DNA from: Leucoraja ocellata
Taxonomy: Eukaryota
Direction: 5' to 3'
Assembly (NCBI GenBank): GCA_036785375.1
Contig: JAWMAR010000079.1
Coordinates: 372,001-436,000, forward strand
Length of the DNA stretch: 64,000 bases
Shown: positions 2,228 through 52,908 of the stretch, piece by piece
Layout of the letters: every line of letters starts with the position of its first letter
Numbering within the stretch: position 1 is the first letter of the stretch
Made by a program: the position numbers and the translations under genes
Notes under the pieces: generated by a model
Told to the model about the DNA's origin: nothing
The model's database searches: none
The model's input: the letters and a program-made list of their open reading frames with translations, nothing else

Positions 2228-2443
2228 GAGATAGACAAAAAAGCTGGAGAAACTCAGCAGGTGAGGCAGCATCTATGGAGTGAAGGAATAGGCGACGTTT
2301 TGGGTCGAGACCCTTCTTCAGACTTCTTTAGTCCGAAACGTCGCCTATTCCTTCGCTCCATAGATGCTGCCTCACCCGCTGAGTTACTCCAGTGTTTTTG
2401 TCTACCTTCGATTTGTCCAGCATCTGCAGTTCCTTCTTAAACA
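2228..2443 (+). mobile_element. Palindromic Penelope-like (pLTR-derived) non-autonomous element, copy A
   Basis: Inverted arms, tail ending ...CTTCTTAAACA, 12-bp TSD TGATATTGAACA (2216-2227 / 2444-2455); minus-strand hammerhead core at 2291-2324 with G12->A. Confidence 0.8.
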
Positions 2444-3525: not shown

Positions 3526-3753
3526 CAAGATCAAGGTCAAGAGAGTTTATTGTCTTGTGTTCCTGATAGGACAATGAAATTCTTGCTTTGCTTCAGCACA
3601 CCAGAACATAGTAGGCATGAATACAGAACAGATCAGTGTGTCCATATACCATTATATAAATATATACACACATGAATAAATAAACTGATAAAGTGCAAAT
3701 AAACAGATAATGGGCTATTAATATTCAGAGTTTTGTCCGAGCCGAGTTTAATA
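3526..3753 (-). mobile_element. Rex1/Babar LINE 3' end fragment
   Basis: Near-identical to 52371-52560, which is contiguous with a Rex1-type ORF. Confidence 0.75.
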
Positions 3754-6700: not shown

Positions 6701-7000
6701 AGTTTAAGAACTACATTTCCAACTGCAGATGTAATTGAAGGAAGTTACGTTTAGCATCTTTCCCATCTCAGAAAAGGCCACAGTACGTTCTGTCTGTGAC
6801 CTGGTGCAGTCACTCTGGTAATGTAGAAACACAGCATTTTATTTGTGTATATCAAGCCCTCATAAACAGCACTGTGTTTATGACCAGGTTATGTGATGCG
6901 AGTGATGTTAGTTGAGGGGTAAGTACAGGATTAGGACAGGGAAGAGACCTGAAACTACATCTTTCTGACTCCAAATGAACTGGCAATACATTTTGAACAA

Positions 7001-7218
7001 TGTTTAAGAGGGAACTGCAGATGCTGGAGAATCGAAGGTTACACAAAAAAGCTGGAGAAACTCAGCGGGTGCAGCAGCATCTATGGAGCGAAGGAAATAG
7101 GCAACGTTTCGGGCCGAAACCCTTCGTCTGAAGAAGGGTTTCGGCCCGAAACGTTGCCTATTTCCTTCGCTCCATAGATGCTGCTGCACCCGCTGAGTTT
7201 CTCCAGTTTTTTTGTGTA
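7001..7218 (-). mobile_element. Palindromic Penelope-like element, copy B
   Basis: Near-perfect ~85-bp inverted arms, tail TGTTTAAG... at left, TSD ACATTTTGAACAA (6988-7000 / 7219-7231). Confidence 0.85.
7128..7155 (+). ncRNA. Minimal type-I hammerhead ribozyme motif (PLE type) in copy B
   Basis: CTGAAGA-A-GGGT(TTCG)GCCC-GAA-ACGT-T: intact catalytic core and stem II, palindromic ACGT in place of stem III; stem I weak. Confidence 0.6.
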
Positions 7219-8079
7219 ACATTTTGAACAATGCCTGGCTCCAAATGGCCTTTGTTGCTTCAAGCAGATTGACTTACACTGCAGCATCACAATTGCTGGT
7301 TTACAATTTTTAGTAAGAGAACTAACTATTAACCAGGTCCTGTGGTTAGTCGATGGCTTACTGTTGTACTTGTACATAACATCCCTCACTCCTTCCCTGC
7401 TCGAGAAACTCAATGGGCGTGCAATAGCAATAGTAAAAATTACTGTTCATATATATCAAATATGGGGTTCCAATTAGTTCACCTTCTCTCATCCATGTGA
7501 TACAATGATGATAGAGTTGTTAATTAATCTCTGTCAACAAGTCTATAACAGTCCCTATGGTAAAGAGACGAGAAAAATGATGTCTGCCGAATTTGCAAAG
7601 AGTGTTAAAGATCTAAAGCTCACTCAGTACGGGTTCTGAGTCTCACATCGCGGGAGATGGTGAACCCTTGGTTTGCGTGGGCATTACAGGTACCATGCTG
7701 TGTCTGTACAGAGGCAGTGCCCTCTTTGAATCTTACACTCAATTGGGGTTGTAAGATCTGATAACTCCCGGGGTACATGACAGCGCTGCTTGTTGTTGGG
7801 TGATGTCATCAACCACACGCTGGATAATTTTAAACTCTGTCTCCAGACTCAGTAAACAAGTCAATAAAGTGCATTGTGCCAATTGCTGAAGTGATGCGGT
7901 GCTTAGCGCAAAATGTTACAGAAATTGCTTGCATAAATTTCTCAACTGGTTTAAATATGTTTGCTATGAGCATAATGATACCATAGGTTCCACGGCAAAT
8001 CTCATCCTAAATCCACAGACTCTACATAAATTATAGAAAACATACCAAGACAAACATTGACTGCTGCTGAAAGATCATC

Positions 8080-9162
8080 CAAGGAGAGATAGTTGAATGG
8101 AAAGAAAATTAGCTTCATGGAAGGAAGCAGAGAGTGATGGTGGAAGCTTGCATCTCAGACCGGAAGCCTGTGACTAGTGGTGTGCCTCAGGGTTTGGTGG
8201 TGGGCCCGTTACTGTTTGTCATCTATATCAATGGTCTGGATCATTGATGAGAACATACACGGCAAGATTGGCAAGTCTGCAGATGATACAAAAGTGGGTG
8301 GTTTTGCAGATAGTGAAGATTAGTTGTGAAAAATTGCTGCAAGATCTTGATCGATTAGCCAGGTGGGCTGAGGAATGGTTGATAAAATGTAATGCAGAGA
8401 AATGTGAGGTGTTGCAATTTGGGAATTCTAACATGGGCAGAACCTACACAGTGAATGATAGGGCTCTGGGTAGTGTTGTAGAACAGAGGGATATAGGAAT
8501 GCAGGTGCATGAGGTGGAGCCGCAGGTAGATTGGGTGGTCACAAAGGCTTTTGGCACATTGGCCTTCATCAGCTAGAGTATTGAGTATAGAAGTTGGGAA
8601 GCAGCATTTAGAGTATTGTGTTCAGTTCTGGGCACTGTGTTATAGGAAAGATGTTGTCAAGGTGCAAAGGGTGCAGAGAAGATTTATGAGGATGTTGCCA
8701 GGACGAGGGTCTGAGCTATAGACAGAGGTTGAGTAGGCCTGGGACTCTATTCCTTGGAGCGCAGAAGGGGGAGAGGTGATCTTATACAGGTGTATAAGAT
8801 CTAGATGAATAGATCGGGTAGAAGCACAGTCTCGTGACCAGAGTAGGTGACTCGAGAAACAGAAGACATGGGTTTAAGGTGAAGGGAAAAAGATTTAATA
8901 GGAATCTGAGGGGTAACTTTTTCACACAAAGGGTGGCGGATGTATGGAACAAACTGCCAGAGGAGGTGGTTGAGGCAGGGACGATCCCATCATTTAAGAA
9001 ACAGATAGACAGGTACATGGATAGGACGGGTTTTGAGGGATATGGATCAAGTGTGAGCAGGTGGGACTAGTGTAGCTGGGACATGTTGGCCAGTGCGGGC
9101 AAGTTGGGCTGAAGGGTTTGTTTCCACACTGTATCATTCTATGACTCTATGAATCTATGACT
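8080..9162 (+). mobile_element. CR1-clade LINE 3' fragment (RT, frameshifted)
   Basis: GVPQG region, LQDLDRLARWAEEWLIKCNAEKCEVLQFG, RGNFFTQRVADVWNKLP; (ATGACTCT)n-like tail. Confidence 0.9.
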
Positions 9163-10664: not shown

Positions 10665-11410
10665 ATTTGGCTTTATATGATACTACGTTTGTGTGGGAGG
10701 GTCCTGCAGTACTGTGTATGCTTGGTATCTGATTATTACAGTGTGATGTTTCATGTCTAAAATTCTGTAGGTGTTATCCTTCTGTGACAGGGATGAGTCT
10801 TATTGAAGATTGAGGGCTGGGACGTGGAACCCTTACTCCATTCACTCCATTAGACGGGAAGAGAACCAGTTAAGAGGAGACTGGCGTTTCGTGAATATTT
10901 AGGCACCAGTAACCATTGAAACGGCTGTTTAACAATTCCTGCATGAATACTCCATTTCCCTGAGCAATGCCCTTTAAAGTTTTAATACCAATTGGTAAAG
11001 AATTATGAGCAAAACACAGTGCTGGAGGAACTCAGTGGGTCAGGCAACATCTCATATCTGGATTGGAAAAGTTACATCTATTTCAAATACTTACCTCTCA
11101 GTGGAGGCAACCTCCACATCCCCTTTTGAGAGGCTCCAAAACAGTAAAGAGCAACAAAACAGGTTTTTAATTATGTATTTACGGTTGCAGTGTGGGAAAC
11201 CAAATAGCTAATTCGACCATCCCAAGCTCTTCTGCATAATAGTCAAATAATCTGCTGATTCTTCCTAAACTAAGTGAGGGATCATTTTTGGCCAGGGCAA
11301 TAAATCTAATTTACCAGCTCTTCCAAGTAGTACCATGGAATTGTTTTCCAACTGCGAAGAGATAGAGCCCTGCTTTAAAGCTCCATCCAGAGAACTGCGC
11401 ATTCTAGAGT

Positions 11411-11511
11411 TGTTTAAGAAGGAACTGCAGATGCTGGAAAATCAAAGGTGGACAAAAATGCTGGAGAAACTCAGCGGGTGAGGCAGCATCTATGGAGCGA
11501 AGATCCAAGCT
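11411..11511 (-). mobile_element. Truncated single-arm copy C of the Penelope-like family
   Basis: Same fixed TGTTTAAGAAGGAACTGCAG terminus; 16-bp TSD CTGCGC(A/G)TTCTAGAGT (11395-11410 / 11512-11527). Confidence 0.8.
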
Positions 11512-12153
11512 CTGCGCGTTCTAGAGTGATGCATCCCCTCATTGATCAACCGTGCGGTGGTCCTTCAATACTTTCTCTCCACACTTCGGCACTCCCTCTG
11601 TTCAGCTCCTCCAGGAAAAACAGTACCCCTCAGCCCAGGCCCTCCAACAGTGCCGTGTACCCTCAGTCAGGTCTCACCGACAGTGTGGGACATACTCAAA
11701 ATTGCCCCACATACAGTGCAGGACACCCTTAAAGCTTCCTGGCTTTCGATGATCATTTATAGTGAAACTTTACCTCTTTGAGTGCTTCTTATGATTTGCT
11801 GTGGACTTGGTTTTCTCTTCTTTGATTGTTACTGTGATGATTATATTCAGATGTTGCTAATTTTTAATTTCTATAATATCCAAACAAAATGCAGAGGAAA
11901 TAACAAAACTGTGTACTTGTGTTTTTATGGCGCTGAGCATTGTATGGTCATTTATTAATTATAAAATATCTGGTGAAGAAGTTGGGGAGGAGGGGATATA
12001 TGGAGGAGTCAGCATTCCATGGTCACAGAATGAAGGGCCTCCTGGCTTTTCAATTGGCAATGGGAGGATGGGATTTGGTGATAATGACGAAAGCATTGGG
12101 GTGATTGGCCGTGGGCAGTAATGTGATGAAACATCCTTGAGTACATTCTATTT

Positions 12154-12346
12154 CCAGTTCATTGGCTATATTTAAGAGGGAGTTAGATGTGGCCCTTGTA
12201 GCTAAGGGGATCAGGGGGTATGGAGAGAAGGCAGGTACGGGATACTGAGTTGGATGATCAGCCATGATCATATTGAATGGCGGTGCAGGCTCGAAGGGCC
12301 GAATGGCCTACTCCTGCACCTAATTTCTATGTTTCTATGTTTCTAT
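12154..12346 (+). mobile_element. Young CR1 LINE 3' end, 52 nt upstream of RASGRF1 exon 2
   Basis: Near-identical to the 37106 element in opposite orientation; (TTTCTATG)n tail. Confidence 0.9.
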
Positions 12347-12398
12347 CTGAGTGTTTGCTCTGAGATGATTGAGATGGTTTATCCTTTGCTTCCCGCAG

Positions 12399-12505: not shown

Positions 12506-15500
12506 GTAGGTGATGGATCAGCGCTCCAGCTCACTGGGTCAGCCGCCCGCCTCCCTGACCCCACCCCCACCACCCTGCCGCTCCTGTCAACATTTGCACC
12601 AAACTCTCACATGTTCTCATCACCCATCATCTGTTTGCTCGCTGACCTTAATCGGCTCCTCGTTCCGCAAAACCCTTGTTTTCAAATTTCCCCCCTCCCT
12701 CTCTCTATAATCACCTCAAGCAACTATGATAGTGGTGTTAAAGAGGTTTTTAGATAGCAACATGACACAGTGGCTTAGCTAGTAAAGCTGCTGCCTCACA
12801 GTGCCAGAGACCCGGATTTGATTATGACCTCGGGTGCTGACTGTGTGGAGTTTGCAAAATCTCCCTGTGACCGCGTGTGTTTCCTCAGGTCTGTAGGTTA
12901 ATTGACCTCCATATCGGCCTCTGTAAAATTGCCCCTTGTGTGTCGGGAGTGGATGAGAAAGTGGGATAACATAGAAATAGTGTGAACGGGTGACTGATGG
13001 TCGCTGTGGAGGCCAAAGGGCCTGTTTCCTTACAGTACCTCTATGCAGGCAATAGAGGGGAATGGAGCAGGTGCAGGCAGAAGAGATTAGATTTGGCTTC
13101 ATGTTTGACACAGACATCGTTGGCCAAAGAGCCTGTTCCTGTGTTGATTGGTATCTCTGCACCTCTCCACTTCCAGACTCATAATCATCTCCAATTTCCA
13201 ATGCTCCACTCTTGTTGTATTTAGCTGCTCAGACCTGCTCGTTTGGAATTCCCTCCTTTAATGCCTCTTACTCTCCACCATAAATTCTCCTCCTCAAACC
13301 TCCCACTTTGACTGAGCTTTGGCCACTCACCCTAATGTTTTCGTACATGGCACGGTGTCTGATTTTGTTTGGCGATGTTTAAGCAAAATATGCTGGACAA
13401 TATTATAGGTACTCTGTATCCATTAATATAAGCTGCTGCCATGAAGCCCACCAACATCTATCCTTCCATCTTGTTTCACCATTGAAACCCAGAGTTGCAG
13501 CGAGAGACAAAGACTTGGATTTCTATAGCATCTTTCACATCCTTTGGACATCAAAATGCATTCTGCAGCCAGTGAAAACGTTTCAAATGTACTCCATTCT
13601 GGTAACATATCTGCTTGTGCACAGTCTGATCCCAAACATGATGAGAAGCCAATAGCCAGATCATCTCTTTTTGTGATGTTGGTCAGAAAGCAGATATTGG
13701 AAAGTAGATGAGAACATAGTCGCCCCTCAGCATTGACCCGTTGACCATACAGCACAGCCTTGGTACTGATCCTGAGACAGCACTTCATTCTCTCAGGACT
13801 GCCCCTGTGACAGTGCGTCACACCCTGAGTACTGTTCCTGCAGCTTTATGCCAGGTAGCTCACGGGGTCCTTCAATCCACCACCACGTGGCTCAGATGTG
13901 AGAATGTTATATAGTCTCCAGGTCTTCGAAAATACCACCTGAACAGACAAAACAGAGCTCCTAGACTGAGGTGACACTATTTGACAGTGCAGTACTCCCT
14001 CAACACTGCACCTTTGCCAGAATAGCACTCCTTCAGTACTGCTCCTTTGACAGTGCAGTGCATTCTCATATTGCCCCTCCAACAGTGCAGTGGTCCCTCA
14101 GTCTGCCCCTCCCAAAGTGATGAACTTCCCCAATATTGCCCCTTCCTTTTGCCTGACTTCCTCAGTACTGCCCTTCCTACAGAGCAGCATTCTTTCTGTA
14201 CTAGCCCTCTAACAATGCATCACTCCCTAAATACTGCCACTCTGACAGTGCGGCACTCCCTCTACTGCCCCTCCCACAGTGATGCACTCCCCCAGTATTG
14301 CCCTCCCACACAACAGTACTCTGACTGTACAGCACTGCCTCAGTACTTGCCCGCAGACTGTCACCTTTTCTGAAATTCTCTGGCGTTTACTTGCCCAAGC
14401 CCATCCAATTTGCTTTGCATGCTTTTGCTAAAGTCTAGTAATCGGCATCAAATGTGCTATTCCTAATACACCTCCGTGTTGCCATCTCAAAATATTTCAA
14501 TGTATCACATTCCTTAAGTCACACAATCTGTGGAGTCTGCTGGCTCAAGTAGTATCTAGCAAAGATTCTATAGGATCTTTGGTATCTAGTTTACAGACTT
14601 GATCTCTGCATGTACCATTCATGGAGAGGTGAAAGACATCCAGAAAAATCCCACAGAGTCTCCAGACAGACAAAGATAGCAACTGAATTGCTTCACAGAA
14701 TCATTGATTTTAAGCTGTTGGTTGTACAAATAGATCCTCTGAGTGTCAGTTCTTATGATAATACTTGAGCTGGATGTTAATTGACACAAAATACACCATT
14801 GGGAGCGATTTCAGGTTAGTAATTTGAGTGAAAGGCTGCAGATTGTGTCAGAAGGTGGCTTGGCATCAATCACACTCAAGAGGCTGTCAATGGATTTCCT
14901 GTTGTCCTAACAAGACATCTGCTGTTAAGGCAGAGATGTTTAATCTGCCTCAGAAACATGTTTAAAGACAAAAGGAACTGCAGATGCTGCTTTACAAAAA
15001 ACACAAAGTGCAGGACCCTTCAGGGTTCCCACCCCGAACGTCACCTCTCCATGTCCTCCAGAGCTGCTGCCTGACCTGCTGAATCACTTCGTAACCTTGT
15101 GTTGCAGAAAAATATTTTATGGCTCCAGTATAGGAGCAACATTGGATATGATGGGGGTGTGGTACATTAGGAGGATCATGCAGTCATAGAGTTACGCAGC
15201 ATGGAAACAGGTTGGGTCAACTCATCCACGCCGACCAAGATGCCCCATCTAAGCGAGTCCCTTTTGCCCACATTCGACGCATATCCCTCTAAACTTTTCC
15301 GATCCAGGTACCTGTCCAAATGTCTTTTAAATGTGATTGTAACTGCATCAACAACTTCCTCTGGCAGATTGCCCCTTATGCTCACCATGCTTTATGTGGT
15401 GGGCAAATGGGACCAAGGTTGTTATTTAAATCTTTCTCCTCTCAACTTAACCCTATGTCCCCCGGCTCTTGATTCCCCCACCCTAGGGAAATAGATATTA

Positions 15501-18500: not shown

Positions 18501-21500
18501 ACCTTGCAACAGAACACGAGTCCCTGATGCAGAAATACCTCCACCTTCTGCAGATCGTAGAGACTGAGAAAACAGTCGCAAAACGATTGCGGCAGCAAAT
18601 TGAGGATCAAGAGATTGAAGTTGAGCGACTGAAAGCTGAGGTAGGAGACGATCAAGACTGGGTTGTGGTGACTGGTGCGCGGGATGTCACCTCTGTAGGA
18701 TCATTCTGGGTTACAAGTCAAGAAAATGGGTAGAAGTGAAGGTGTGATTCTTACTGAATTCGGGATATATTTCACTCCCAGTTACACTGCGGAGAATCCT
18801 GTTGGAAGCTGGGAATATTGTATGGAAAAACTTGTGGCTCTTGTTTGTGAGCCCTTGGCTGAGTGACTCCAGTGGCAGTGGATCAGGTCATTGAATTCAC
18901 TTAGCTTTCTTTCTCATTTCTTTTAACAGATTGCTTCACTGCTCAAAAACAATGACCGCATCCAACTAACCGAGCCAGTGATGCAGAATGATGAAGATGT
19001 TGATATAAGGAAAATCAAGAAGGTAAGACAGATACACAAGCCACTGACATATCCTGCAGTAAGACATTTTTGATTTTATTGTGACCCACTCCCACATAAC
19101 ATATTCTTCGTAAACAAATAATCTTCTTGACCTTAAGCTCCAAGATTCCTTTGCTCCCCAGGTGTCCCCTATTTATGATACATTTTCTTGCCTTGTTTGC
19201 CTTCCACAAATATATTGCTTCACACATTTCCAAACTGGATTCCATTTGTCACTTTCCCGCCCTTCTAAGCAGTTCATTGATATGTAACTTTCTTCCTTGG
19301 GGTTGATTGTCTTTGGTTTGAAACTTTGGTTTCACCTGTAAATTCTTAACTGTGGCACCTACCCTCCAAGTTAAAGTCATTGCTGTATCCAACAGGTCCA
19401 AAGCTTCCTGCGAGGATGGCTGTGCAGAAGGAAGTGGAAGACCATTATCCAGGACTACATCCGCTCCCCACATGCTGAGAGCATGAGGAAGAGGAACCAG
19501 GTTGTGTTCAGTATGCTGGAGGCTGAGGCTGAGTATGTCCAGCAGCTCCACATCCTTGTGAACTGCTTCCTCCGACCACTCCGCATGGCAGCCAGCTCCA
19601 AGAAGCCTCCGATCACCCATGATGATGTTAGCAGCGTATTCCTAAACAGGTATCCAGCAAGAGAATCTAATAAAATAGTACTTAGGATGCTGGACCAACA
19701 ATCATGAAGTTGAGTTCCTATCCCATGCTGGCAGGCGGGTAATTTAAATTTAGATAATGAAATAAATCTAAAATTATTGTATTGGTAGTGGATTATGTTA
19801 AAAAGTCATTTGGATCACTAATGTTCAGCCATGGAAACCTTTGATCGTTACCCGTTGTGACCTGTATGTGACTCTGGACCCACTGCAATATTCCCCCTGA
19901 AAATGCTCTGAAGACAGTAAGTTGCACCAAACCGTCATGACTGGTTCCACATTCCCACCAGATTCCCAAAGCAGGAATAAATGCAGCCTTCCTGTGAAAG
20001 ATTTACAAAAAAAGTAATTTTAAGAATTCCATACATACCTATCACCATTGAGTTGTCTATGACTTGGAAGGATGTGATCAGAAATGATTAGCAGGATTTT
20101 ATTGTAAATACACATTCCATTCTCTTTCTTTATACTTACCTTGTTCTCTTTTCCAGTGAAACAATTATGTTTTTGCACCAAATATTTTACCAGGGACTAA
20201 AAGCCCGAGTCTCCAGCTGGCCTACACTAGTACTAGGTAGGTATCGTGAGTACTTATATCATGAGGCTCCCCATTGGTAACTCAGGTGTCGTGTTCTTTT
20301 GTGCAGATGTGAAAATTATAGTGTTCAATCCGCAATATGCTCTGCTCTCAAGACGGAGCCTTGCCTCTTTAACAGAACAGACCAGGATTAGCTTCTTGTG
20401 AAGTAAACAAAGCACAGTTCAATCAGAGTTCAGTTGCTCTTTTAGTTTAATTCCTCAACCAGAGTGAAAGATCTGGCTGTTTAAAAGGAAGGTGATCAAT
20501 TGGTGAAAAGGCTGACTGTCAGTATAAAATCAAAGAGCATAAGACGAGCTGGCAGAAAACACAGCGGGTCGAGCAGCATCTGTGGGGCAAAGGAATTGTC
20601 AAGGTTTCTGGTCGAGACCCTACATCAGGATTCCTTTCCCACATAGATGCTGCTTGACCAGCTGAGTACCGCCAGCAGTCTGCTTTTCTTTTTGCAGTTT
20701 CCAACATCTACAGTCATTTGTCTAAAAAAAATGAAGAATCCAATTAACAGAATGTTTTTCCAAAAAAAAAGGTCCAGTTAGTAGAATTCCATGAAATGTT
20801 ATGTTGGGTCTGCTCCCATTTATTACATATAAAACAATTAAGATTAATTTTGGAATTTGAGTATTCTACAATTTTGGAAATGCTGTAACCTGAATTAGTT
20901 TAGTTTAGTTTATTGTCACATGTATTGAATTATCAAGATTATAGGTGGACAGAACTGCATCAGCAGGTGGGTGCCATGTGCAGTTGAATATTGGCAAATG
21001 GCAATTAATAGCCCTTTAATCTAAGAGCAGAGCAACAAAGTACAAGTTTGTTCAATGTTCACACAAAAGTCCAAAGGCATCATTGTGTAAAAAGTCCACA
21101 AATAAAAATAGCTACCATTTTTGTTTTAGTATCAAGGAAAATAAGATGCACTGAGTGTTTATCATATTATAATTAAGCCACAGTGGAAATGCTGTTTTTC
21201 AGATTTAGGCACCAAGTATAGAAAGAATGTGTAAACGTAAATCACTGGGATGTTACCAACAGTTATTGGGATACATGTGCAATGCAGGGTATTCACTAAA
21301 ATTGGGAACATTTAGAGAACGGTCTAACCTTTAAGATCATCGTATTATTTACACTGCGTTATTTCTGATAAAATCAGAAAATGCTGAAAAATCTCAGCAG
21401 GTCAGGCCGCATCAGTGGAAAGAGAAACAAATACCTGTAATGCTTTAGGTCTGGGATATAGATTGACTGACTGAGATTTTGCAAACAAAGAAGAAAACTT

Positions 21501-24500: not shown

Positions 24501-27500
24501 TTGTACGTCCAGGCTCCTAATATCCCAGAAGGAGAAGAAGGAACAGGGAATGGCCAGAGTGGCAGGCATCCTTGACGAGCAAAGAAATCCTGTGGAATGA
24601 TCTTTACCAATGGAGTGGACTACAAGTGAACAAAGTGTTCAGTGACACACCGAGTCACATGGCAGACCGTTGTCTATTGTGCCGTACCTTCAGCAGCTTG
24701 CAAGTGGAATTTTAGCATTTTATTTACGGCCACTTTAGAAGGCAGTTCGAAGACTCAGAGCAGCTAAGGTGGCAACTTTCCTTCCCTAATATACATGAGA
24801 CGGGTCACAAGAATTCAATAGTATTGTGACTAATTATACTTAATCAACTGGAATTATTTAATGAACTGAGTTTAAAATCACTTAAATTTGCCTTCAAACT
24901 CTCATTAGCTGGATTACTAATCTAATATTATAACTGCAATTGCATCATGCTCAATACACAACCACTGCAGGTTTTGCTGAGTTGGCAGCTCACATGATAT
25001 TCTGTTGAGAGCGATATGCTTATCTTTGTTTTACGGTCCACCAGTAACTAGCTGATACTCTCTCTAACCCAGGATCGCTTATCCAAGTACCCATGACTGA
25101 GAAAGGGAAGATTACCCGTGGTCGGTTGGGATCGCTCTCAATGAAAAAGGAGGGAGAGAAGCAATGTTTTCTGTTCTCCAAACACTTGATAGTTTGTACC
25201 CGAGGATCGGGTGGGAAACTCCACCTAACTAAAGTAGGTGACCAATGCTCATCTGTGTGTTCTTTCATTTCAAAATGTAATATGTGCAGAAATGCTGCAG
25301 CATTAGCACTCAAATAAGTGATGTACACAGAAAATAAATGTCTTTTTGCCCATCCATCAATGTGCTAGATTTTTGAAAGAGTTCTCTATTCAATGCCTCT
25401 TTTTCCCAAAAGTTCTGCAAATATCCCCTTTCATCAAATTTCCCCATCGAAAGTAGCTATCGATTACCCACTATTGGTCACTTTAAAACAGCATGTGTCC
25501 AGAAAAATGCTGTGTAAAAATCCCTTATCTTCCCTCTGGTGGCCAGCCTTCTGTGGAAGCAGCTTCTCCTCATTGACTCTATCAAAACTCTGTGCTTTTG
25601 AATTTCCCCTCCATTTTCTCTACTCTCAGAAGAACAATCTCAGCAACTCATCACTCCCCCACATAAGATGAAGTTTTATCGTCCTTGGGCTCACATGAAT
25701 AAATATCCTCTCCGAGGTCATGATCATGGAAACATTGTTCTGAATGGTGTAGCCAGTGACAAGGTGAAATGTGTTTTTGGCAATATCTTACTCTAATGTT
25801 TCAAATGTGATTTTGAGGAATTCCTCACTCGGGGATCAAAGTCTGAACAGTGGAAGCAGGCTCAACCTGAGAGGCTGGATATCAGGCTGGGAATCCATCC
25901 ATGCCCAGATGTTGGAGGAGATTTGATAATCTAGTCACAAGTCTACAGTTGAGGCTCAGTTTTAGGATGTTCATTTAAAAATTGATAAACAATGGAATTA
26001 AGGGAAGTATTAAAGGCCACATTAATGGAATTACATCACATATCACTCAAAATTTACAGTAAGGTCGAACAGGCTTGAGAGAATAAATGGGCTCCTCCTC
26101 CTTCAATATCATTTTGTGTCGCAAATATAGACCATTCTCCCACCCACTCAGACATTTCTCTGCTTCCTCATCCCCCCCCATGTGATAATCACTGTGGCTG
26201 GTTTTGTTTTTCAGATGCTGTTTGACAGTAAACGAGTAAGTACATCAGAAGCTGCTCAGGGAACTTGACTCTCGCTCAGTGCCAGGCGGGTGGGAACCTT
26301 ACTGGAAGTGAAAGGCTGGGGCTTTAGGTTTAGGTTAAACCTCCCATCATTTGTACAGGGCAGAATGTACCGGGGTTCCATTCAGGGATCTCCCCATTGC
26401 TTTTACCAGTGACCTCACAGGTCCTGGAACTCCTTGGCCCTGACCACAGAATCACTGTTAATTTATGAAAACTACCACCTCTCTGGGGACCACTGAGGGG
26501 ATTCTGATCACGGGCACTAGACACATTAATGCTCCCCTTGTCAGCCAACAACCAACTGCACTGAGTCATGTGTGCAACGCTGCTCCAGACAAGAGCAGTT
26601 GCCTATGGGGAGGTGATCCTTCAATTATTTATGTATATAACCTCCTGTTCACTTGGTTCTTGCATCTCCTGTATGACCTCACCATTGATTACCTTTCTTC
26701 AATGTATTATGAAAATGTGTCATTTCACACCTTTCTGTTAATTACCACCAGTGTGTGCCTGGCCATTTCACTAACGATATGTATCATTCCAGGGATGAAC
26801 TCAGCTGTGAGAAAGAATGTCATTTATGTTTAAGTCAAATCTTGTTTGCCTTTTCAAGTGGTTTTAATTGCTTTACAGAATGGTGTTCTCTCACTCATTG
26901 ATTGCACCTTGCTGGAGGACCCAGAGACCACAGAAGATGAGAGTATGTAAAAAGAGTTACAATATAGAATTTGTGTGCAAGTGTGAATGGGCGTGAGCAC
27001 CTGTGAGTGTGAATCTGTGAGACCGTGTGTATGTGTCGGTGTGTGTTTATGTCTAAGACTGGGCTTGCACACAAGACTCAGCACATGCATTTGTGTTTGC
27101 GTGTATCTATGAGAGGTCCTTGTGTGTGTACTTGCTTCTGTAAGTTGGCAGGTTAAATCAGTATATCAACTCCTGGAACCAAAGCCTGACCAGTCTAATT
27201 CTGTTCTAAGGGCTCTCACTGAACCCTGGCTTGGTACTGCCTTAGTGAAAAGAGCCTCAGCACTAAAGGTTAAAGTTGATGCTGAATTTATGCTTTCCAC
27301 CAAGCTGGAAAGGGTACAAAAAAGATTTACGAGGATGTTGTCAGGACTAGAGAGTCTGAGCTTTGGAGGGAGGTTGAGTAGACTGGGACTCTATTCCTTA
27401 GAGCGCAGGAGGATGAGGGGTGATCTTATAGATCATGAGAGGAATAGATCAGGTAGATGCACAGAGTCTCTTGCCCAGAGTAGGTAAATCGAGGACCAGA

Positions 27501-30500
27501 GGACATAGGTTTAAGGTGAAGGGGAAAAGATGTAATGGGAATCTGAGTTTTTCACACAAATGGAGGTGGATGTATGAAACAAGCTGCCGGAGGAGGCAGT
27601 TGAGGTAGGGACTATCCCAACATTTAAGCAGCAATGAGGCAGGCACATGGATAGGATAGGTTTGGAGGGATATGGACCAAATGCTGGTAGTGTGTAAGTA
27701 ACTCTTTGGGATAGATTGGTCAGGCTGTCTCAAATAGGCTTCGAGCCAAGGCAGGAAGAGCAGAGGACCTAAACTAGTAAATACGGAAGATTCAAGCCAG
27801 AATATTGGGGATTCTATTTCTGAGGTTGCGGAAAGGAATGTATATGAGGCATGGTCAAGGGATATTTATTCTGTTTCTGCCTGTGCATCTGGCACCAGGT
27901 CAGATGCAAGAAAATTCCTGAATTCTATTTTCTTTAAGTCCATTAAATCCCCATTTGGGCACTATTCCAAGAGGTAACAATTCATGTCAGGTACCTGTTG
28001 CTTTGGGAGAGCAAGATGGGAAATCCATTGGATGATGAATAAGTGGAAGCAATGGCACAACTGGGAGTTGAAGCCGAGGACTTGGCGGCTGCGGTTTGGC
28101 TTGTCAGGGATGTTATGATATTCGGGGCAAATTCAAGATGGAGGGAGAGGGAAAAGAACCAATTGGTGTGCCACTGTTGCTGTCAATCTTTTATTTTTAA
28201 ATCTGCCAGCTCGAGGAGCAGGTCAAGACATGGAACACCTTGATTTCAAACTTGTGGTGGAACCGAAAGATACGCCGTCGTTCACTGTGATTCTGGTGGC
28301 CTCGTCACGGCAAGAGAAAGCTGCATGGACTAGTGATATTAGCCAGGTGAGTGAATTCTCATAGAATCATGTAGACAAAGACTGTTTGGTCATTGTGCAT
28401 GTCCCAATGTGAAAGAGCCTCTCCATTTAATCTCACTCCTCTTGTCCTTTTCCTGGGATTTCTCATTGGTTCTTGCTCTGGTTCTCACTCCTTTCTTCTT
28501 CAAAAGGTTCCTAATCTCCTCCCTCTTTGGCAAAAGTTTAATTTTAGTATCTCCTCATGTAGTTGGTAACAAACTGTTTGTTGGTGCTCCTGTGAAGTAT
28601 CTTGGCTGTTCTACTGTGTTAAAAGTTCATTAATTATTGCTGTATGGCCATAGAAAGGTGCTGAATTTTCCGACAGTAATTTCAGTTCTTAGAGAATACA
28701 ATTATTGCTGCAAATATTCAGCGGATCAGGGAGCATCAAAGGAGGGAGAAACAGATTCATATTTCAAGCTTTTAACTTTTCATCCAGTTGTTCAAAACTT
28801 TGCAGGGTTTAAAAAAAAAAATCAGGTCTGCAGTTTTTTTATTATTATATACCAAATTATTTCTCTCTCTCCAGTGCATAGATAATATTCGATGCAATGG
28901 TCTGATGATGAATGCATTTGAAGAAAACTCCAAAGTCACAGTTCCACAGATGATTAAGTAAGTGATAATCCACTGCAAGTCTACTCAACTCACAGAAGCA
29001 ATTGTGTGCAGAGGAAGTGTCTCTTTAATGCAGTCAGAATTTGGTCACATAGTGGCTAAGTTACTGGGCTAGAAATCTGCAAACATAAAAACATAATGCT
29101 GTTCAGGGAAGGAAATCTGTTCATCTTATCTATTATGGCCCCATGACTCCATTGCATTGAATCCATGACAGGTTCTGGATGCGTCTGAACTACCTTTGAC
29201 ATGCCTTACCAAGCACTCTGCTCTCACATCACCTTCTCATGGCAATTAGGGATGGAGAACGATTGATAGCCTTGCTAGCAAAACTTACATCCCATTATTG
29301 AATTTAGAAAAAACACTCCCAAACAACAAAAAGTAGAACTTGACCTATCTCTGTTATGTAGCTCCATTTCTATCTGCTGTGGGATAGACATTATCCTATA
29401 ATATACTGGCTAAGAAGTTCCTTTTGTTATTGGGGCTGAAGCTGTCAAATACTGTAAGCCTGCTACAGGGAGTTTGAGACTATACCCTTAACTTATGACA
29501 AGTCTGGTCAGTAGTCTGATAAGAGCATTGAAGAAACTGTCCCTTAGTCTGGTGTTACGTGCTTTCAAAGTTTTGTATCTTCTGCCCGACGGGGGACGAG
29601 AGAAGAGGGTGTGTAAAAGGTCCTTGATTTTGTTGGCTGCTTTCCCGAGGCAATGTGAAGTGCAGATGGAGTTTGCTTTGTATGATGGACTGGGCCTCAT
29701 CTACAACTTTCTTCAATTTCATGCTGACTTGTGAAAATCTGTTTCAAAACCAAGTTGCGATGCATCCCAATAGGATGCTGTCTGCCGAGCATCCATGGAG
29801 GTTGGTAAGAAATGTTGGAAACATGCAAAACTTCCTTAGTCTTCTAAGAATATAGAGGCATTGCGGTGCTTTCTTGGCTGTAGCTTCAATGTAGTTGGTT
29901 CAGGACAAATTGTTGGTGATTCATACCACTAGGAACTTGAATCTGTTGACCATATACATTTCAGCACCATTGATGATGATTAGGACTTGTAAATTACTCT
30001 GTTTTTTTTAAAACAATAACTAACCTTAATTTTTCTGACATTGAGAGGGGTTGGCTTGACACCATGTTACTAAGCTCTCTTTCTTCTCTTGTTCTCCGTT
30101 TTTGCCATGGTTTGAAATCTGGCCAACTATGGTGGTGTCATCTGCAAACTCGTAAATGGAGTTAGAGCAAAATTTGGCCACACAATTGTGAGTGTATAGG
30201 GAGTGTAGCAGGGGCTGAGAACAAATCCTTGCACAGCACCAGTAAAATTACCAACAAGGTTGTTTTGTAGCTGATCTTCCCTGATCGTAGTCTATCGGTC
30301 AGGAATCGAAGATCCAGTGGTAGAGGGTTGTACTAACTCCTAGATCTATGTGTTTGGTACTACAATCTTCTGCCACTAAATATTAGGGAAGGTGAGTGTT
30401 TGCATCCTCTTGAGCTGTTAAGCCAATTGATGAGATTATGATTGTTCTATTACACCTTACCTGCAGAATTTCTACCTTTCACCTATATCGCACCAACGTT

Positions 30501-33500: not shown

Positions 33501-36500
33501 AATATATAACAAGCTAGTGATTGAAATAGCCAGGAGTTGTGGATTACCTGTGACCTTCTTTGACTCTGCAGAGTTCCCCTTGTTTTCCTACAATAACGGA
33601 GTGGTAGTCACCTCCAGTCGGGAGATGGAGAACAATCGTAGTGCACTGTCAGCGACCTCAGCATTTGCCATTGCGACGGCTGGTGCCAACGAGGGCACTC
33701 CCACCAAGGAGAAGTTCAGGAGAATGTCCCTGGCCAGCGCAGGTACCCTTTATTTTGGCACGTGGGATCGGATTTCTTAATGAATCTTTATTAATAAAGT
33801 CCCCTGTTAATTGATTCTAGTCATAATAGTTACTCTAATAATCAGCAGAAGGCAGTTTCAAAGATTAATCAATGATGAAATTGTATTTCTGCCTGTTTTT
33901 ACTATTAATGTAGTTAATGTATTTTCAGTGAAATCATGCTTTATTGGTGCTAGATTCGTATGAAATATCAAAAAGGAGGCATGAGGTCCCTTGTGTCTGC
34001 CTCAGCTCTTTTAAAGAGCATTATATTGGGATCAGATCAATAAATAGCTAAATGTTCTTGATTGTAAGTGAGGAATATAAATGACGCATTACATTCTCTT
34101 ATGAACAATATTCTAAATTAGCGCAGATGATGATGAGTTGGCAGTGGTAACAGAGTGATAGTTGATGGTTAGCGAGGATCCACATAACACCACAATAGAG
34201 AACAGAGTTGAATTGATTTATGTCACAATGTAAGGTGGCCAGTAGCGAGACTGAGAGCCAATAGAAATAAAAAAACTGGNNNNNNNNNNNNNNNNNNNNN
34301 NNNNNNNNNNNNNNNNNNNNNNNNNNNNNNNNNNNNNNNNNNNNNNNNNNNNNNNNNNNNNNNNNNNNNNNNNNNNNNNNNNNNNNNNNNNNNNNNNNNN
34401 NNNNNNNNNNNNNNNNNNNNNNNNNNNNNNNNNNNNNNNNNNNNNNNCTTAAAGGGGCAGGAACCAAAGCTGGAAATAGTTTTCGTATTTAATGTGAGAG
34501 AAATACATTTGTGCAGAATCACATGTTCCAAATGCACATTACAGCATGGTTGTACACTGCTGCTGAAATTCAGTTCCACTTATTTCACTGGTGAATTTTG
34601 AAAGTAGCTGCTGGTGTATGCATGTGGAGCACATATGAATGAGGACCTATTTCGACCCACTTGCTTAACTTTAACGGACCCTAGATAGACAGTGAAGGAA
34701 TCAAAGGATATGGAGTTAGTGACACAGAAGTAAAAAAACAGCCATGATCTTACTGAATGATAGGGAATCATGATTGTGATTATTATATTCTTATCTCGCT
34801 GAGATTTGGTGCGAGATAGTGAACCTGTTTGGGCACAAAATTGCAAATGTGATTTGTTCTTGGCATAATTTTCTGACTGTTGGCATAATTAAACAAGCTC
34901 AAACATGCTAGGTTTCGGATTCCTGTGTTAAGTTCACAGCTTGCATCTACCAGACACAACAGGGCAGAGCCTCACGATGGGTCCCAACTTTAAAAGTTCC
35001 TCTTTCACTCAAACGTCACTACAGCTGTTCACTTCAGAAACCCCCCAAACCCAAACCAGCTCTCTCTTCCTCTTTCGGCATGCTGCGGCTGAAACACTAT
35101 CGTTGTGAGCAAACCTTCTCCCAACAGAAACCACTGCGCATGGCCTGCGTGGTGAAAGATAGCTCAGCACAGATTACTCGAGAGTGGCACTGCAGTGGAT
35201 TTACTTCCTACTTCGCCAGAGACCTGGGTTTAAACCTGACTACAGATGCTGTCTATACGGAGTTTGCATGTTCTTGTTGTGACTGCGTGAGTTTTCTGCA
35301 GTTGCTCCGGTTTTCTCCAACATTCCAAAGATGTGCAGGTTTGTAGGTTAATTAGCTTCTGTAAATTATACCTAGTGTGTAGGATAGAACTAGTGTATGG
35401 GGGATCATTGATTGGCGTGGACTCGGGGGGCTGAAGGGCCTGTTTTCCACGCTGTATCTCCCAACTAAACTAAACAGTGTAAATTGTTGCATGTGGCTGA
35501 GCACTACAACCCGAGCTAAGCTACAGTTGCATTATCATTTTCATAACTAAGACAAGTCTAACATAGATAGTCAGGTTCTGTCAGACTCAAGTTGGTAGGC
35601 CAAGCTCCAGTGTGAGAGAGGGAGAGATATAATCAAATGCTTAGTCGTCAGCTCCCAATAGATGATGTGCCGAGGTGGTCTCTGATGTTCACTATTATTT
35701 CTGAATACATTTTTGCATTGATTCCAGGCTTTCCTGCTGATCAGAGAATTTGTGACAAAGAATTTGTCATTCGAAGAGCAGCTACAAATCGTGTGCTCAA
35801 CGTGTTGAGGCATTGGGTCTCAAAGCATTCCCAGGTAGTGCTTAGCTTCAATGTCGTATCCAATGGAACTTGATGTGCGTAAAAGAGGGTCGTGTCCTCC
35901 TGGTTTGATTCAAATGTGGTTCATATATTACCGAGTAGGTCCACTACAGGTATTATTTCCATAAACCTTGTGATCGGTTCTTTGGAATGTTATTATTCCA
36001 CTGTTCCATGCTGTTAAACAAGGTGTATCAGAGGATTATCTCATACTGTGGTTTCATTGATCCGAGGTACAATCTTGGCTTGCCTTACAAGCTGCATTGG
36101 ATCAGATAAGATGCAATCACTGAACAGATGACAGAGGCTCCCCTTCTCTGCTGTGGCCACTGTCAGGAACCAGTCAAGAGCATTTGATTTAAGTGTTTGG
36201 GAAATGATAAAGGCAGAAGAGTTTAATTGCACGCCTGGTATCCTGGTGTGCGATTGTCCAACTGCACAGGAGTATAACATTCCAATGTGAGTACCACGGG
36301 ACAAGGGAAGCCATTCACAGTCTCTGCTCCTACTCTGCAAAGTGTTGCAGTAGGATATTTCTCATTCACAGACAATGAAATACTTTTAAAGTCTAGATAC
36401 TGTAGCAGTATGCGAAATAAACTCACCAATTTGCATATGTTACAATAGGTATACTTCATAATATGCACAGTTTTCTTGTTTTCCTTACATTCATTTTACC

Positions 36501-39500
36501 ATCAATCCTATACGTTCTCTTACAATGTGTCCATGCCAGTCATGTTTCTTCCTTAAACAGTGTAGCTGTGGAGCCTTTGAAAGGCTGTTACACAAACACA
36601 GCACCCCAGTGGCAGCTGGGCCCTCCACAGAGCCTTCATGGTGTCTGCACGGAGGCTCAGCACATACCCTTGCACCCTGGTATGTACCAGTTAGCAGAAT
36701 CTGCTTATGGACATTTCACCCTGGAAGTTCAATCGGTTTCAAGCAGACCAAAGTGTGTCTTTCACCAAGTTAATTATTTTCAAGAGGCGATTTATGTTAT
36801 CTCAGTGTGCATTCCTGCAGACAACCCATGGATCACAAAGTCCTCTGGTACACAGCTGATCACGGCAAACCTCAGCAAGAACCACTACAGCATATCCCAG
36901 ACTTTCTCTCGGAAGAAACAGTACAGAAATGGCAGCATATTTCTCAAAATTGTTTTCCTTGGCATCAATAACCATGTAGGACTCGCAGCCACCCGTTTGG
37001 GTTAAAGTATCCCGGACACAAATTGTAAAATATCCCACTGCGGCAGAAATTAATTCATCAATCTACCACAAAAAATAGATTGACTCATAATTTGCTTCAT
37101 TTATACATAGAAACATAGAAAATAGGTGCCATTCGGCCCTTCGAGCCTGCACCGCCATTCAATATGATCATGGCTGATCATCCAACTCAGTATCCTGTAC
37201 CTGCCTTCTCTCCATACCCCCTGATCCCTTTAGCCACAAGGGCCACATCTAACTCCCTCTTAAATATAGCCAATGAACTGGCCTCAACTACCTTCTGTGG
37301 CAGAGAATTCCAGAGATTCACCACTCTCTGTGTGAAAAATGTTTTCCTCATCTCGGTCCTAAACGATTTCCCCCTTATCCTTAAACTGTGACCCCTTGTT
37401 CTGGACTTCCCCAACATCGGGAACAATCTTCCTGCAGCTAGCCTGTCCAACCCCTTAAGAATTTTGTAAGTTTCTATAAGATCCCCCCTCAATCTTCTAA
37501 ATTCTAGCGAGTACAAACTGAGTCTATCCAGTCTTTCTTCATATGAAAGTCCTGACATCCCAGGAATCAGTCTGGTGAACCTTCTCTGTACTCCCTCTAT
37601 GGCAAGAATGTCTTTCCTCAGATTAGGAGACCAAAACTGATCGCAATACTCCAGGTGTGGTCTCACCAAGACCCTGTACAACTGCAGTAGAACCTCCCTG
37701 CTCCTATACTCAAATCCTTTTGCTATGAATGCTAACATACCATTCGCCTTCTTCACTGCCTGCTGCACCTGCATGCCTACTTTTAATGACTGATGTACCA
37801 TGACACCCAGGTTTTGTTGCATCTCCCCCTTTCGTAATCAGCCACCATTCAGATAATAGTCTACTTTCCTGTTTTTGCCACCAAAGTGGATAACCTCACA
37901 TTTATCCACATTATACTGCATCTGCCATGCATTTGCCCACTCGCCCAGCCTATCCAAGTCACCTTGCAGCCTCCTAGCATCCTCCACACAGCTAACACTG
38001 CCCCCCAGCTTTGTGTCATCCGCAAACTTGGAGATGTTGCATTCAATTCCCTCGTCCAAATCATTAATATATATTGTAAATAGCTGGGGTCCCAGCACTG
38101 AGCCTTGCGGTACCCCGCAGAGATACATGAGATCTTTGTTCATCCAGTTAGACTATTAGGATTGTCACACAATAAAAACAGTGACTACATTTTAAAGAAT
38201 GGCTGAAGTCCATTTGGGTCATTCCTGAAATGTGAAAGGTGCTTAATAATGTCAGCCATCCCTCCATAAGATGCATATGGTACATGATGGGAAATTTAGC
38301 CACAGTTTTTGTAATTGGAGTCCCAGAAATATTAAATGTTAATTGTTCTTCATCTATAGGATTTTGAAGCAAACATCGAGTTAAAAACCAAAGTGATTGT
38401 TTTTCTGGAGGAAGTTATTCATGACCCTGAATTGCTAACTCAAGAGAGGAAAGCAGCAGCTAACATCATCAGGCAAGTTCTCCTAAGCAGGATTTTACTC
38501 CAACAAAACGATGAAATCGTAATGCGGATTACTTAATGGAAGGGATACTTCTTCAGGGTGAACCAGGTGATATTCCACAGAACCTGCAATTTGGAAACTG
38601 ACCATTTGGCATCTGGTTCCTGCAGGTGTTCCTGTTCCTCCTTAAACACCCCTGCCAATCCTTGTCTCTTTCCCCACCACCATATCCTTTATTTTATTGG
38701 TAATTTGTTTACCTAGATTCCTCTTAAATCCATTTTGATTATTGATTTCAACCATTGTGGAAATGGGTGGCTTGTCGTGATTGTGTCTGACTCCACCACC
38801 CAAGCTGCCACGACTCCAGCAGGTACAAGGTGGTGGAGCTGATCATCATTGGTGTGAGTACAAGTATCAGGTCCATGGACGTCGATCCATAGGGGAAATA
38901 AATGTGTTTTAATGAAGCTCTTGCTGGATTTTGTACTTGTATCTCTGTGCTAAATGTACTTCCTCGTCCACCCACTCAGTATTTTAAAGACTTGCCATCT
39001 TCCTGTGTTTAATAACACAGCATTTCCAATTTCTAGGACACTGAATGAAGGCGACCCAGGATATTACCAAATCCCTATGGAAGAGATTATGAACACGGTC
39101 GGTATCATTGTTTCTCTCCGCTTTGAGGGTTTCTGTGCTTTACAACCTTTATATTAAAATTCCATCTTTTTTTCCTCCTCTTTGAAAAGACGGAAGCAGA
39201 GACTTTTGAGAATCTTTCTGCCCTGGAGATAGCTGAAGAGTTGACTTTGTTGGACCACCTGGTCTTTGGGTGCATTCCATATGAGTAAGTCACTTCCTTC
39301 TTTTTAGACTTCCTTCATGTCAGTACAGAGGTGGCCGATGAGGCTTCTGTGGGATCTGCAGATTATGCTTCAGGTGTTTGACAAGGCAGTTGGTTGGGTA
39401 GTATGGGAGATGTGTACTCCTTCATTGGTGTGTTTGGCTTCCCTTTGCGCCCTACAAAGAGACACCGAGTGCTCAGTGCCTTCCTGAACGCTCCTTCAAC

Positions 39501-50073: not shown

Positions 50074-50381
50074 GAGTCATAGAGTCATAGAATGATACAG
50101 TGTGGAAACAGGCCCTTCAGAACCAACTTACCCACACCAGTCGATATGTCCCAGCTACACTAGTCCCACCCGCCTGCGTTTGGTCCATATAACCTATATA
50201 CCTCCAAACATGTCCTATCCATATACCGGTCTAACTGTTTCTTAAATGTTGGGATAGTCCCTGCCTCAACTACCTCCTCTGGCAGCTTTTTACATACACC
50301 CACCTCCCTTTGTGTGAAAAAGTTACTCCTCAGATTCCTATTAAATCTTTTCCCTTTCACTGTAAACCTATGTCCTCTGGA
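50074..50381 (-). mobile_element. CR1 LINE 3' end
   Basis: RGHRFTVKGKRFNRNLRSNFFTQR; gagtcatagagtcatag tail; same subfamily as 8080-9162. Confidence 0.9.
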
Positions 50382-51283: not shown

Positions 51284-51849
51284 GGGCCTGTCCCACGAGC
51301 ATGCGACCTGCATGTGGCAAGCACGACCAAACCAGAAGCAGGGGCTGCACGGAGGTCGAGTGATCCCCGTACAAGGCTGGTCCCACCAGCATGCGACCTG
51401 CATGTGGCAAGCGCGACCAAACCAGAAGCAGGGGCTGCACGGAGGTCGAGTGATCCCCGTACAAGGCTGGTCCCACCAGCATGCGACCTGCATGCGGCAA
51501 GCGCAACCAAACCGGAAGCAGGGGCCGCGCGGAAGTCGAGTGAGTGACGTGAAGTTCGAGCGAAGTCCGCGGGAAGTTTGCACGTGACGTACGGCGTCGA
51601 GACGCTGCGCACGCCCGTCGAGGCAGTGCATACGGCGTCGAGGCGGCTGCGGGCTGGCAGGCCGTTGCCGCGCGGACTTTTTGAACACGGTCGGTTTTTC
51701 GGAGCCCCGTGCGATGTCGGGACCAGATCCGCACAACTCCACACGGCTCCGGCGATCGAAGTGGGACCGGCCCCACGAGGCCATACGGTTCAAGTGATCA
51801 CGTTAGGTCGCGCTTGCTGCATGGAGTCACATGCTCGTGGAACAGGCCC
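51284..51849. mobile_element. CpG-rich non-autonomous DNA transposon (MITE) with TIRs, flanked by TTAA
   Basis: TTAA|GGGCCTGTCCCACGAGCATG ... CATGCTCGTGGAACAGGCCC|TTAA; superfamily uncertain (PIF/Harbinger-like or Kolobok-like). Confidence 0.85.
51290..51542. repeat. 90-bp tandem repeat (~2.8 copies) inside the MITE
   Basis: atgcgacctgcatg recurs at 51301, 51391 and 51481. Confidence 0.95.
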
Positions 51850-52370: not shown

Positions 52371-52908
52371 CAAGATCAAGTTCAAGAGAGTTTATTGTCA
52401 TGTGTCCCTGATAGGACAATGAAATTCTTGCTTTGCTTCAGCACAACAGAACATAGTAGGCATTGACTACATAACACATGAATAAATAAACTGATAAAAT
52501 GCAAATAACAAATAATGGGTTATTAATGTTCAGAGTTTTGTCTGAACCAGGTTTAATATCCTGATGGCTGTGGGGAAGTAGATATTCCTGAACCTGGTCG
52601 TTGCAGTCTTCAGGCTCCTGTACCTTTTACCTGAAGGTAGCAGGGAGATGAGTGTGTGGCCAGGATGGTGCGGGTCTTTGATGATACTGCCAGCCTTTTT
52701 GAGGCAGCGACTGTGATAAATCCCCTCGATGGAAGGAAGGTCAGAGCCGATGATGGACTGGGCAGTGTTTATTACTTTTTGTAGTCTCTTCCTCTCCAGG
52801 GCGCTCAAGTTGCCGAACCAAGCCACAATGCACCCGGTCAGCATGCTCTCTACTGTGCACCTGTAGAAGTTAGAGAGAGTCCTCCTTGACAAACCGACTC
52901 TCCGTAAT
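52371..52908 (-). mobile_element. Young Rex1/Babar LINE 3' fragment inserted in an older Penelope-like arm
   Basis: LSNFYRCTVESMLTGCIVAWFG...LLPSGKRYRSLKTATTRFRNIYFPTAIRILN; flanks rejoin as aatattcagcagatc...cagcagcatttgtg. Confidence 0.88.

Follow-up and report, generated by a model that had tools for sequence, protein, structure and literature searches.

In the available part of PMC8557442, EN+ Penelope-like elements (PLEs) are described as having a single ORF with a reverse transcriptase (RT) that carries a DKG motif, a CX2-5CxxC linker and a C-terminal CCHH GIY-YIG domain, and this motif set assigns an element to the Neptune and Nematis PLEs. Their pLTRs occur in partial tandems with an inverted 5′-truncated copy, a tail of 30–40 bp at one end and a hammerhead in the pLTR, and the same source describes the origin of the inverted structures and of the one-sided tail as undefined. 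PAc (Poseidon) from Anolis carolinensis cuts and extends both strands in vitro; as far as the accessible text goes, its RT has two internal start sites, which set the limits of the tail, a dimer is predicted, and insertion does not need hammerhead cleavage (Frangieh et al. 2024, PMC11167929). Head-to-head inverted pLTRs with one tail, TSDs, junction palindromes and an Inr-like motif in the pLTR were reported for the rotifer Adineta vaga, in the portion of PMC3846280 at hand. The animal non-LTR retrozymes, in the available part of 10.64898/2026.07.22.740005, are short, non-coding, related to PLE pLTRs and arranged as head-to-tail tandems with a type-I hammerhead in each unit.

Here we analysed a window of 64 kb of skate DNA, the whole stretch presented above. 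The short inserts in it are the 3′ end of a Penelope-like element, namely a pLTR with a minimal hammerhead core and an optional 35-nt tail. EN+ PLE membership fits every feature that could be tested, and the motifs suggest a Neptune- or Nematis-like element. The ORF architecture, pLTR tandems, inverted truncated copy, tail and predicted hammerhead are all shared with the Neptune (or Nematis) elements as the consulted sections describe them, but the skate element has a very high copy number and most of its copies are about 130 nt long. As in the described part of the PAc system, the tail would span the interval from one RT start site to the other at the pLTR/ORF junction. In contrast, PAc (Penelope/Poseidon clade) lacks the Zn-finger linker and its ORF begins inside the hammerhead, whereas the skate ATG lies 35 nt past the tail end; PAc initiation is also reported there as non-homologous to the target, whereas junction microhomology is strong in the skate element. 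The Adineta Penelope shares the inverted anatomy, but it is a low-copy element. Retrozymes differ in that the skate inserts are solo or head-to-head, with 5′ ends mostly upstream of the hammerhead cut site; an assignment to the retrozymes was rejected since the window copies are solo or inverted, and only rare loci such as L295 approach that arrangement. The element is thus a known kind and a high-copy new member of it, and a useful mechanistic record. A literature search by titles and the beginnings of abstracts, covering mostly papers outside subscription, returned no description of the family in sharks or rays and no count of twin priming in PLE hairpins; an existing entry for the family is possible, for example in Dfam/Repbase or in paper supplements.

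Inserts in the 64-kb window

Element positions were numbered backwards from the tail end, which is −1. The features in the window were:

6988–7002, + strand: left TSD of the first hairpin, 15 bp, the final 2 nt common with the element tail end
7001–7125, − strand: tailed arm of the first hairpin, PLE 3′ end from about −125 to −1
7001–7035, − strand: 35-nt tail of the first hairpin, which in tandem copies runs into the ORF leader
7126–7223, + strand: tail-less arm of the first hairpin, PLE −132 to about −35/−40
7128–7155, + strand: predicted minimal type-I hammerhead core (CUGAAGA, extra A, helix II, GAAA-C-GUU)
7219–7233, + strand: right TSD of the first hairpin, direct-repeat partner of 6988–7002
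2216–2455, both strands: second hairpin copy as a whole, insert 2228–2443 with 12-bp TSDs
2232–2324 (− strand), 8-nt filler, 2333–2443 (+ strand): tail-less arm, filler and tailed arm of the second hairpin
11395–11527, − strand: solo tailed copy with 9-nt filler, −93 to −1 at 11411–11502
60795–61027, both strands: third hairpin copy, tailed arm 60810–60927 (− strand) and tail-less arm 60921–61013 (+ strand)
58609–58698, − strand: older tail-less solo relative, about 79% identity
20545–20677 (approximate), both strands: older palindromic relative, 78–80% identity

The insert at 7001–7223 is an inverted pair with arms of 94 nt and 97% complementarity. A first-pass annotation had placed five inserts in the window, and all five were found where it put them, four with clean direct repeats of 12–16 bp. 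Its TSD lengths held for the copies at 7001 (about 13 bp, or 15 bp with the 2 shared nucleotides), 2228 (12 bp) and 11411–11511 (16 bp with 1 mismatch), while the 11–15 bp given for the third hairpin (60810–61013) became 16 bp when shared bases were counted. The insert at 58609–58705 is an older relative with only 77–79% identity to the young copy, and it is the weakest of the five: the claimed 15-bp TSD was read by eye at 58594–58608 and 58706–58720 with 2 mismatches, but TSD scans gave no direct repeat of at least 7 bp. For the palindrome at 20545–20677, which was absent from that annotation, a TSD scan found none. Alignment confirmed that four window copies have a common tail terminus and that the second arms of the three hairpins stop short of it, at −40, −35 and −40, with three different centres. 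Still older relatives of the same pLTR end (about 64–77% identity) lie at 4507, 15033, 21387, 28711 and 51071. When the 64 kb were scanned for the element ORF, no part of it was present.

Read against PMC4209133, the stretch 7128–7155 carries the CUGANGA, extra base, G10.1–C11.1 pair, GAAA, palindromic C-G and NUH of a putative hammerhead with a predicted cut after 7155. Its helix I is only 2 bp, as in the D. virilis variant, compared to the 4–5 bp of the minimal type-I criterion. An Rfam scan of 6900–7350 showed no hammerhead and only sub-threshold matches to microRNA hairpins, and the motif folded no better than shuffles, with an input in which one copy had a mutated GAAA. Two stems were given no weight. 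An 8-bp stem between body and tail was invariant in 16/16 copies, but its bases are the selection anchors and no pair covaries; a long-range stem of −134/−121 with the tail end in the MFE fold had a z of −0.8.

Other repeats are also found in the window. One family, which we take to resemble the 3′ end of a CR1/L2-type LINE, occurs at 37190–37837 (− strand), 8739–9150, 12154–12353, 27372–27718, 50081–50379 and 62396–62531 and has a 216-aa stop-free frame; 12154–12307 and 37128–37281 are 98% complementary. A 90-nt GC-rich unit is present three times in tandem at 51285–51554 (81–100% alike), dispersed satellite-like units with a 32-nt period lie at 11640–11707 and 13797–14303, a further repeat has two copies (3526–3753 and 52371–52558, 87–96% alike), and 34280–34447 is a run of 168 N.

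Continuity with a Penelope-like ORF, copy number and age

With one arm as the query, the 3.44-Gb genome yielded 40 scored loci of 95–100% identity. In two of the 30 fetched loci (L005 and L010) the tailed arm was attached to a longer copy on the opposite strand, with a GIY-YIG frame, UTR, hammerhead core and tail-less end; in L010 the order is TSD, inverted tailed arm, sense GIY-YIG/UTR/hammerhead-core copy, tail-less end and TSD. Upstream walking led to a 624-aa frame (L047) that matched RVT_1 (2e-7) and GIY-YIG (4e-3, under the Pfam cut-off) and contained DKG, YIDD, CX4CxxC and a CxxC inside GIY-YIG. The CX2-5CxxC linker between RT and EN takes the form CX4CxxC at residues 491–499 of protein P0001, and DKG is accompanied by a CCHH motif, in which two Cys lie between GIY and YIG. 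Both L097 and L098 are partial tandems that form pLTRs. L097 is bounded by a TSD and reads truncated copy, pLTR, tail, leader, ATG, frameshifted ORF, pLTR and tail-less end. Its tail continues into the leader and then the ATG, and thus the tail is the pLTR-to-ORF junction. Stop-free RT+EN frames reached 1138 aa in L091 and 1068 aa in L098, and no intact ATG-to-stop copy was seen among the 16 junction loci with frames read. The nearest proteins were unnamed shark and ray ORFs at 62–71% identity, homologues that carry no clade names, and a PDB sequence search with the element protein gave chance matches only (E 0.34 or worse). L073 and L098 have an expanded 12-residue repeat, in frame, within the low-complexity N-terminal region of the ORF. 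The link to PLEs that had been suspected from the window was therefore established by longer genome copies that run into an RT and GIY-YIG ORF (L010, L047 and L097).

The same continuity bears on whether the hairpins are MITEs of a DDE cut-and-paste transposon, a reading that only their short hairpin appearance would suggest. It is refuted, with next to no probability left: TSD lengths vary, the ends are asymmetric, the centres vary, the inserts are continuous with the RT ORF, and solo arms outnumber hairpins (53/67 loci in a random sample). The tabulated copies are the opposite of what a DDE transposon predicts, in agreement with the first-pass annotation, which had argued against cut-and-paste.

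A body 32-mer had 81,327 exact matches genome-wide compared to 0 for the reversed control, so the resemblance among the inserts is not due to chance. The tail-to-ORF-leader junction had 72 exact matches, and patterns beginning at −132 and −142 had 22,178 and 7,183, all with reversed controls of 0; these exact-match counts are lower bounds, and the patterns are unequal in variant tolerance. In a random sample of 1.32 Mb, made up of stretches chosen without regard to content, 84 arms had at least 85% identity, or about 219,000 when scaled to the genome, and the 67 loci consisted of 14 inverted inserts and 53 solo arms (27 tailed and 26 tail-less). Arms of every age numbered about 307 per 1.32 Mb, which together with the older window relatives shows that there were earlier waves of this pLTR end. 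As proposed earlier, the family is young, with 4/40 scored loci 100% identical across all 128 nt, the window copy among them, and it is also very abundant. Four window inserts were checked for empty paralogous sites; none was found, and their flanks had no match other than themselves among the fetched loci.

The hairpins had been taken for a distinct non-autonomous PLE system. The data do not support such a separate family, since the hairpins are the short end of a continuum that reaches full-length copies (arms of 44 nt to more than 3 kb) and the same centre occurs on different subfamily backgrounds. A related explanation is that most of the short copies come from non-autonomous loci mobilised in trans, either deleted pLTR-leader-pLTR tandems, retrozyme-like units or hairpin masters. 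Internally deleted tandem copies that keep the leader do exist and could be such sources: among 14 sampled junction loci, the majority have internal deletions and retain only a short ORF-start piece, L295 is a dimer of a 194-nt unit and contains two hammerhead cores, both L291 and L292 are tandems, and animal retrozymes have been argued to be PLE-derived in the available part of 10.64898/2026.07.22.740005. One centre also recurs in 7/17 pairs of a query-selected set. However, that recurrent centre is on three subfamily backgrounds, with the variant in both arms, and the unselected sets show diverse centres. In addition, the L291 and L292 units have no hammerhead core, the short copies lack the leader that the Anolis element, in the accessible text, needs downstream of its start sites, and their 5′ ends showed no common upstream leader sequence. 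We consider this origin for most copies unlikely. L291 (G000:C466:676700-677800), L292, L295, L299, L302, L303 and L306 are all internally deleted pLTR-leader tandems and possible non-autonomous sources. The units of L291 and L292 are 144 and 150 nt long, and L291 has four tail ends in tandem and an inverted tail-less arm, all inside one TSD.

Insertion ends and arm pairing

A TSD filter of 11–21 bp near the boundaries, which excludes shorter TSDs and counts shared bases, was passed by 101/186 loci, and 75 of these 101 had TSDs of 13–16 bp. The distribution of 3′ ends had two modes, one at −1 to −4 and the other at −34 to −43. Head-to-head inserts (n = 59, including 2 duplicated loci and a few compound inserts) combined a tailed with a tail-less arm in 57 cases and two tailed arms in 2, and none had two tail-less arms; one of the two exceptions is compound and the other has no TSD. 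In sets unselected on ends the pairing rule held in 20/22 (P=6e-5 against 0.5). One locus, L147, appears to be an extreme hairpin, with the first 8 nt of the tailed arm followed by the tail-less arm inside a 15-bp TSD.

Microhomology with the target was counted after ends with extra bases had been dropped (13/70 tailed and 33/80 tail-less). At least 3 nt were shared by 28/57 clean tailed ends (two-sided null 6–7%) and by 9/47 clean tail-less ends (null 5%). The tailed-end match extended at least 3 nt into ORF-leader bases that are absent from the short copies in 7/70 (vs 2.3%, P=0.001), and it was weak in the unselected subset, with 7/27 having at least 1 nt (vs 19%). Endonuclease site preference could account for the leader-matching bases as an alternative to primer pairing, and the data here fit both. 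Three independent inserts of different lengths (L008, L054 and L192) had entered the same 16-nt site of another short repeat, a site that resembles both element ends; 13 look-alikes of this repeat were present in the random sample, 12 of them insert-free.

At the centres of 57 pairs the arms overlapped in 37, often on quasi-palindromes, met flush in 8 and were separated by filler in 12. Arm lengths were concordant, with 9 pairs both long, 46 both short and 2 discordant, although divergent UTRs make some long arms appear short. Where a centre included a long arm, 19/21 had two, against a background of 9/85 long arms; about 5 of these 21 are small internal inversions, and L010 was merged with L005. 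Arms within a pair shared subfamily variants, with a difference of 3.8% compared to 4.7% when shuffled, and 0/5000 shuffles were as low. Such sharing would likewise be expected of two RNAs derived from a single active source or from contemporaneous sources.

In L1 twin priming both target strands prime cDNA, which leaves an inversion inside one TSD; the second primer anneals at a variable internal site and the segments barely overlap. In the skate element, by contrast, both start sites are constant, with a spacing of about 36 nt, and there is almost complete overlap between the arms. Twin priming at two fixed RT start sites is favoured by the target microhomology at both outer ends, the arm concordance and the quasi-palindromic centres. 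We infer that the hairpins, which are extremely 5′-truncated PLE copies, were each probably built by RT primed on both strands of a staggered cut.

The overlapping centres, 19 in a count of 32 pairs with −120/−120 the commonest, would also be expected if hairpins arose by self-priming of a folded-back antisense strand, as put forward for the Adineta Penelope palindromes in the part of PMC3846280 at hand. A fold-back copy, however, can neither reach beyond the 5′ end of its template nor gain a tail, and the tail-less arm extended at least 15 nt further 5′ in 12/57 pairs, which disfavours simple fold-back (the tailed arm did so in 8/57). The filler at 12/57 centres and the microhomology with the target at both outer ends also speak against it. 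Fold-back is excluded for asymmetric cases such as L010 and possible for symmetric ones; as a general explanation it is improbable.

The first-pass annotation had proposed that each palindrome is assembled at insertion, with the opposite target strands as primers on two RNA templates. The assembly and the primers agree with the twin priming suggested here, but two separate RNAs are not required, because the concordant arm lengths and the near-exceptionless pairing of tailed with tail-less arms fit a single junction no less well. The model in which each arm comes from a separate RNA held by a dimer does not on its own predict the 57/59 pairing or the long–long concordance, barring an asymmetric dimer and one source locus. 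Some loci do need two pLTRs, namely those in which a short arm is joined to a long one (L005, L010 and L045) and those in which the arms differ at diagnostic sites (L008 and L167), and tandem re-joins between units are common. Separate RNAs as the general rule appear rather unlikely, and we lean towards both primings taking place on a single RNA junction in most inserts and involving two pLTRs in a smaller number. L005 and L010 have the same junction of a short tailed arm with a long arm, and their TSDs differ; the run-off end is imperfectly homologous to the ORF, which may have made this junction a hot spot.

The 5′ cliff and the proposed mechanism

Coverage in the 1.32 Mb fell from 68 at −115 to 11 at −138 and decayed slowly beyond, and the exact genome-wide matches beginning at −132 (22,178) likewise outnumber those beginning at −142 (7,183). 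In the unselected sets 42/53 cores ended at −127 to −136, with a mode of −132, although the cliff is overstated since about 9–10 of the 42 apparent stops, judged by eye, continue into a divergent C-rich UTR. Most copies reach about 132 nt upstream from the tail end and stop at a TCAGTC that we take to be Inr-like. The site also has a polypyrimidine tract and CAG, a candidate splice acceptor, and adjoins a C-rich stretch that is a candidate RT barrier; in D. virilis an intron end was mapped to helix I, according to the available part of PMC4209133. Hammerhead cleavage does not explain the cliff, which lies about 30 nt upstream of the predicted cut, and cleavage was rejected as the origin of 5′ ends, with only 6 random-sample ends at −101 to −104, where a palindrome is also located. 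The ORF start was re-joined to −123 to −135 in 6/14 internally deleted tandems, which is compatible with an RNA end there but no proof of it. Five of the 14 leader-junction loci reach −123 and 2 of these 5 pass beyond −135, the same as for 3′ copies. RNA reads from two related organisms, in which passenger copies dominate, showed no start site or GT..AG joint among the matches listed; the same three boundaries appeared as loose ends in both, with a strand bias that differs between the libraries. That the short copies are run-off products of the mRNA leader, with the stop near −132 being the mRNA 5′ end, is a weaker proposal with even chances.

In the full model, a protein, probably a dimer, would bind the RNA at the pLTR/ORF junction, and both target strands would be nicked 13–16 nt apart. 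One strand would prime at the tail end and the other at a site about 36 nt upstream, usually with a shared RNA junction as template. The 3′ ends of both cDNAs would then be joined, often via self-complementary words (−135/−127, −119/−107 and −108/−103) or filler, and in the weaker step most cDNAs would halt near −132, the 5′ end of the element mRNA. This complete scheme of a dimer, one RNA junction, two sites about 36 nt apart, short target–RNA pairing and run-off about 132 nt upstream is tentative, with odds somewhat short of even.

An inverted 5′-truncated copy with a one-sided tail of 30–40 bp is anatomy known from earlier descriptions of PLEs and would by itself not surprise a PLE specialist; the gain lies in the junction statistics. 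The copies are liable to mis-annotation as MITEs or microRNA hairpins, and they spread perfect inverted repeats across the genome and host transcripts. The family offers tens of thousands of near-identical, TSD-bounded insertions with countable ends and bears on the open mechanism of PLEs, for which the first in vitro system dates from 2024. The strict pairing, junction microhomology and 5′ cliff give clear predictions for that system. If the full model were true, a single mechanism would account for the PLE tail, for its restriction to one side and for the head-to-head palindromes; it would replace the antisense self-priming proposal and qualify the claim of no-homology initiation in vitro, and a few source junctions would have given the skate genome roughly 10^5 'strong-stop' insertions.
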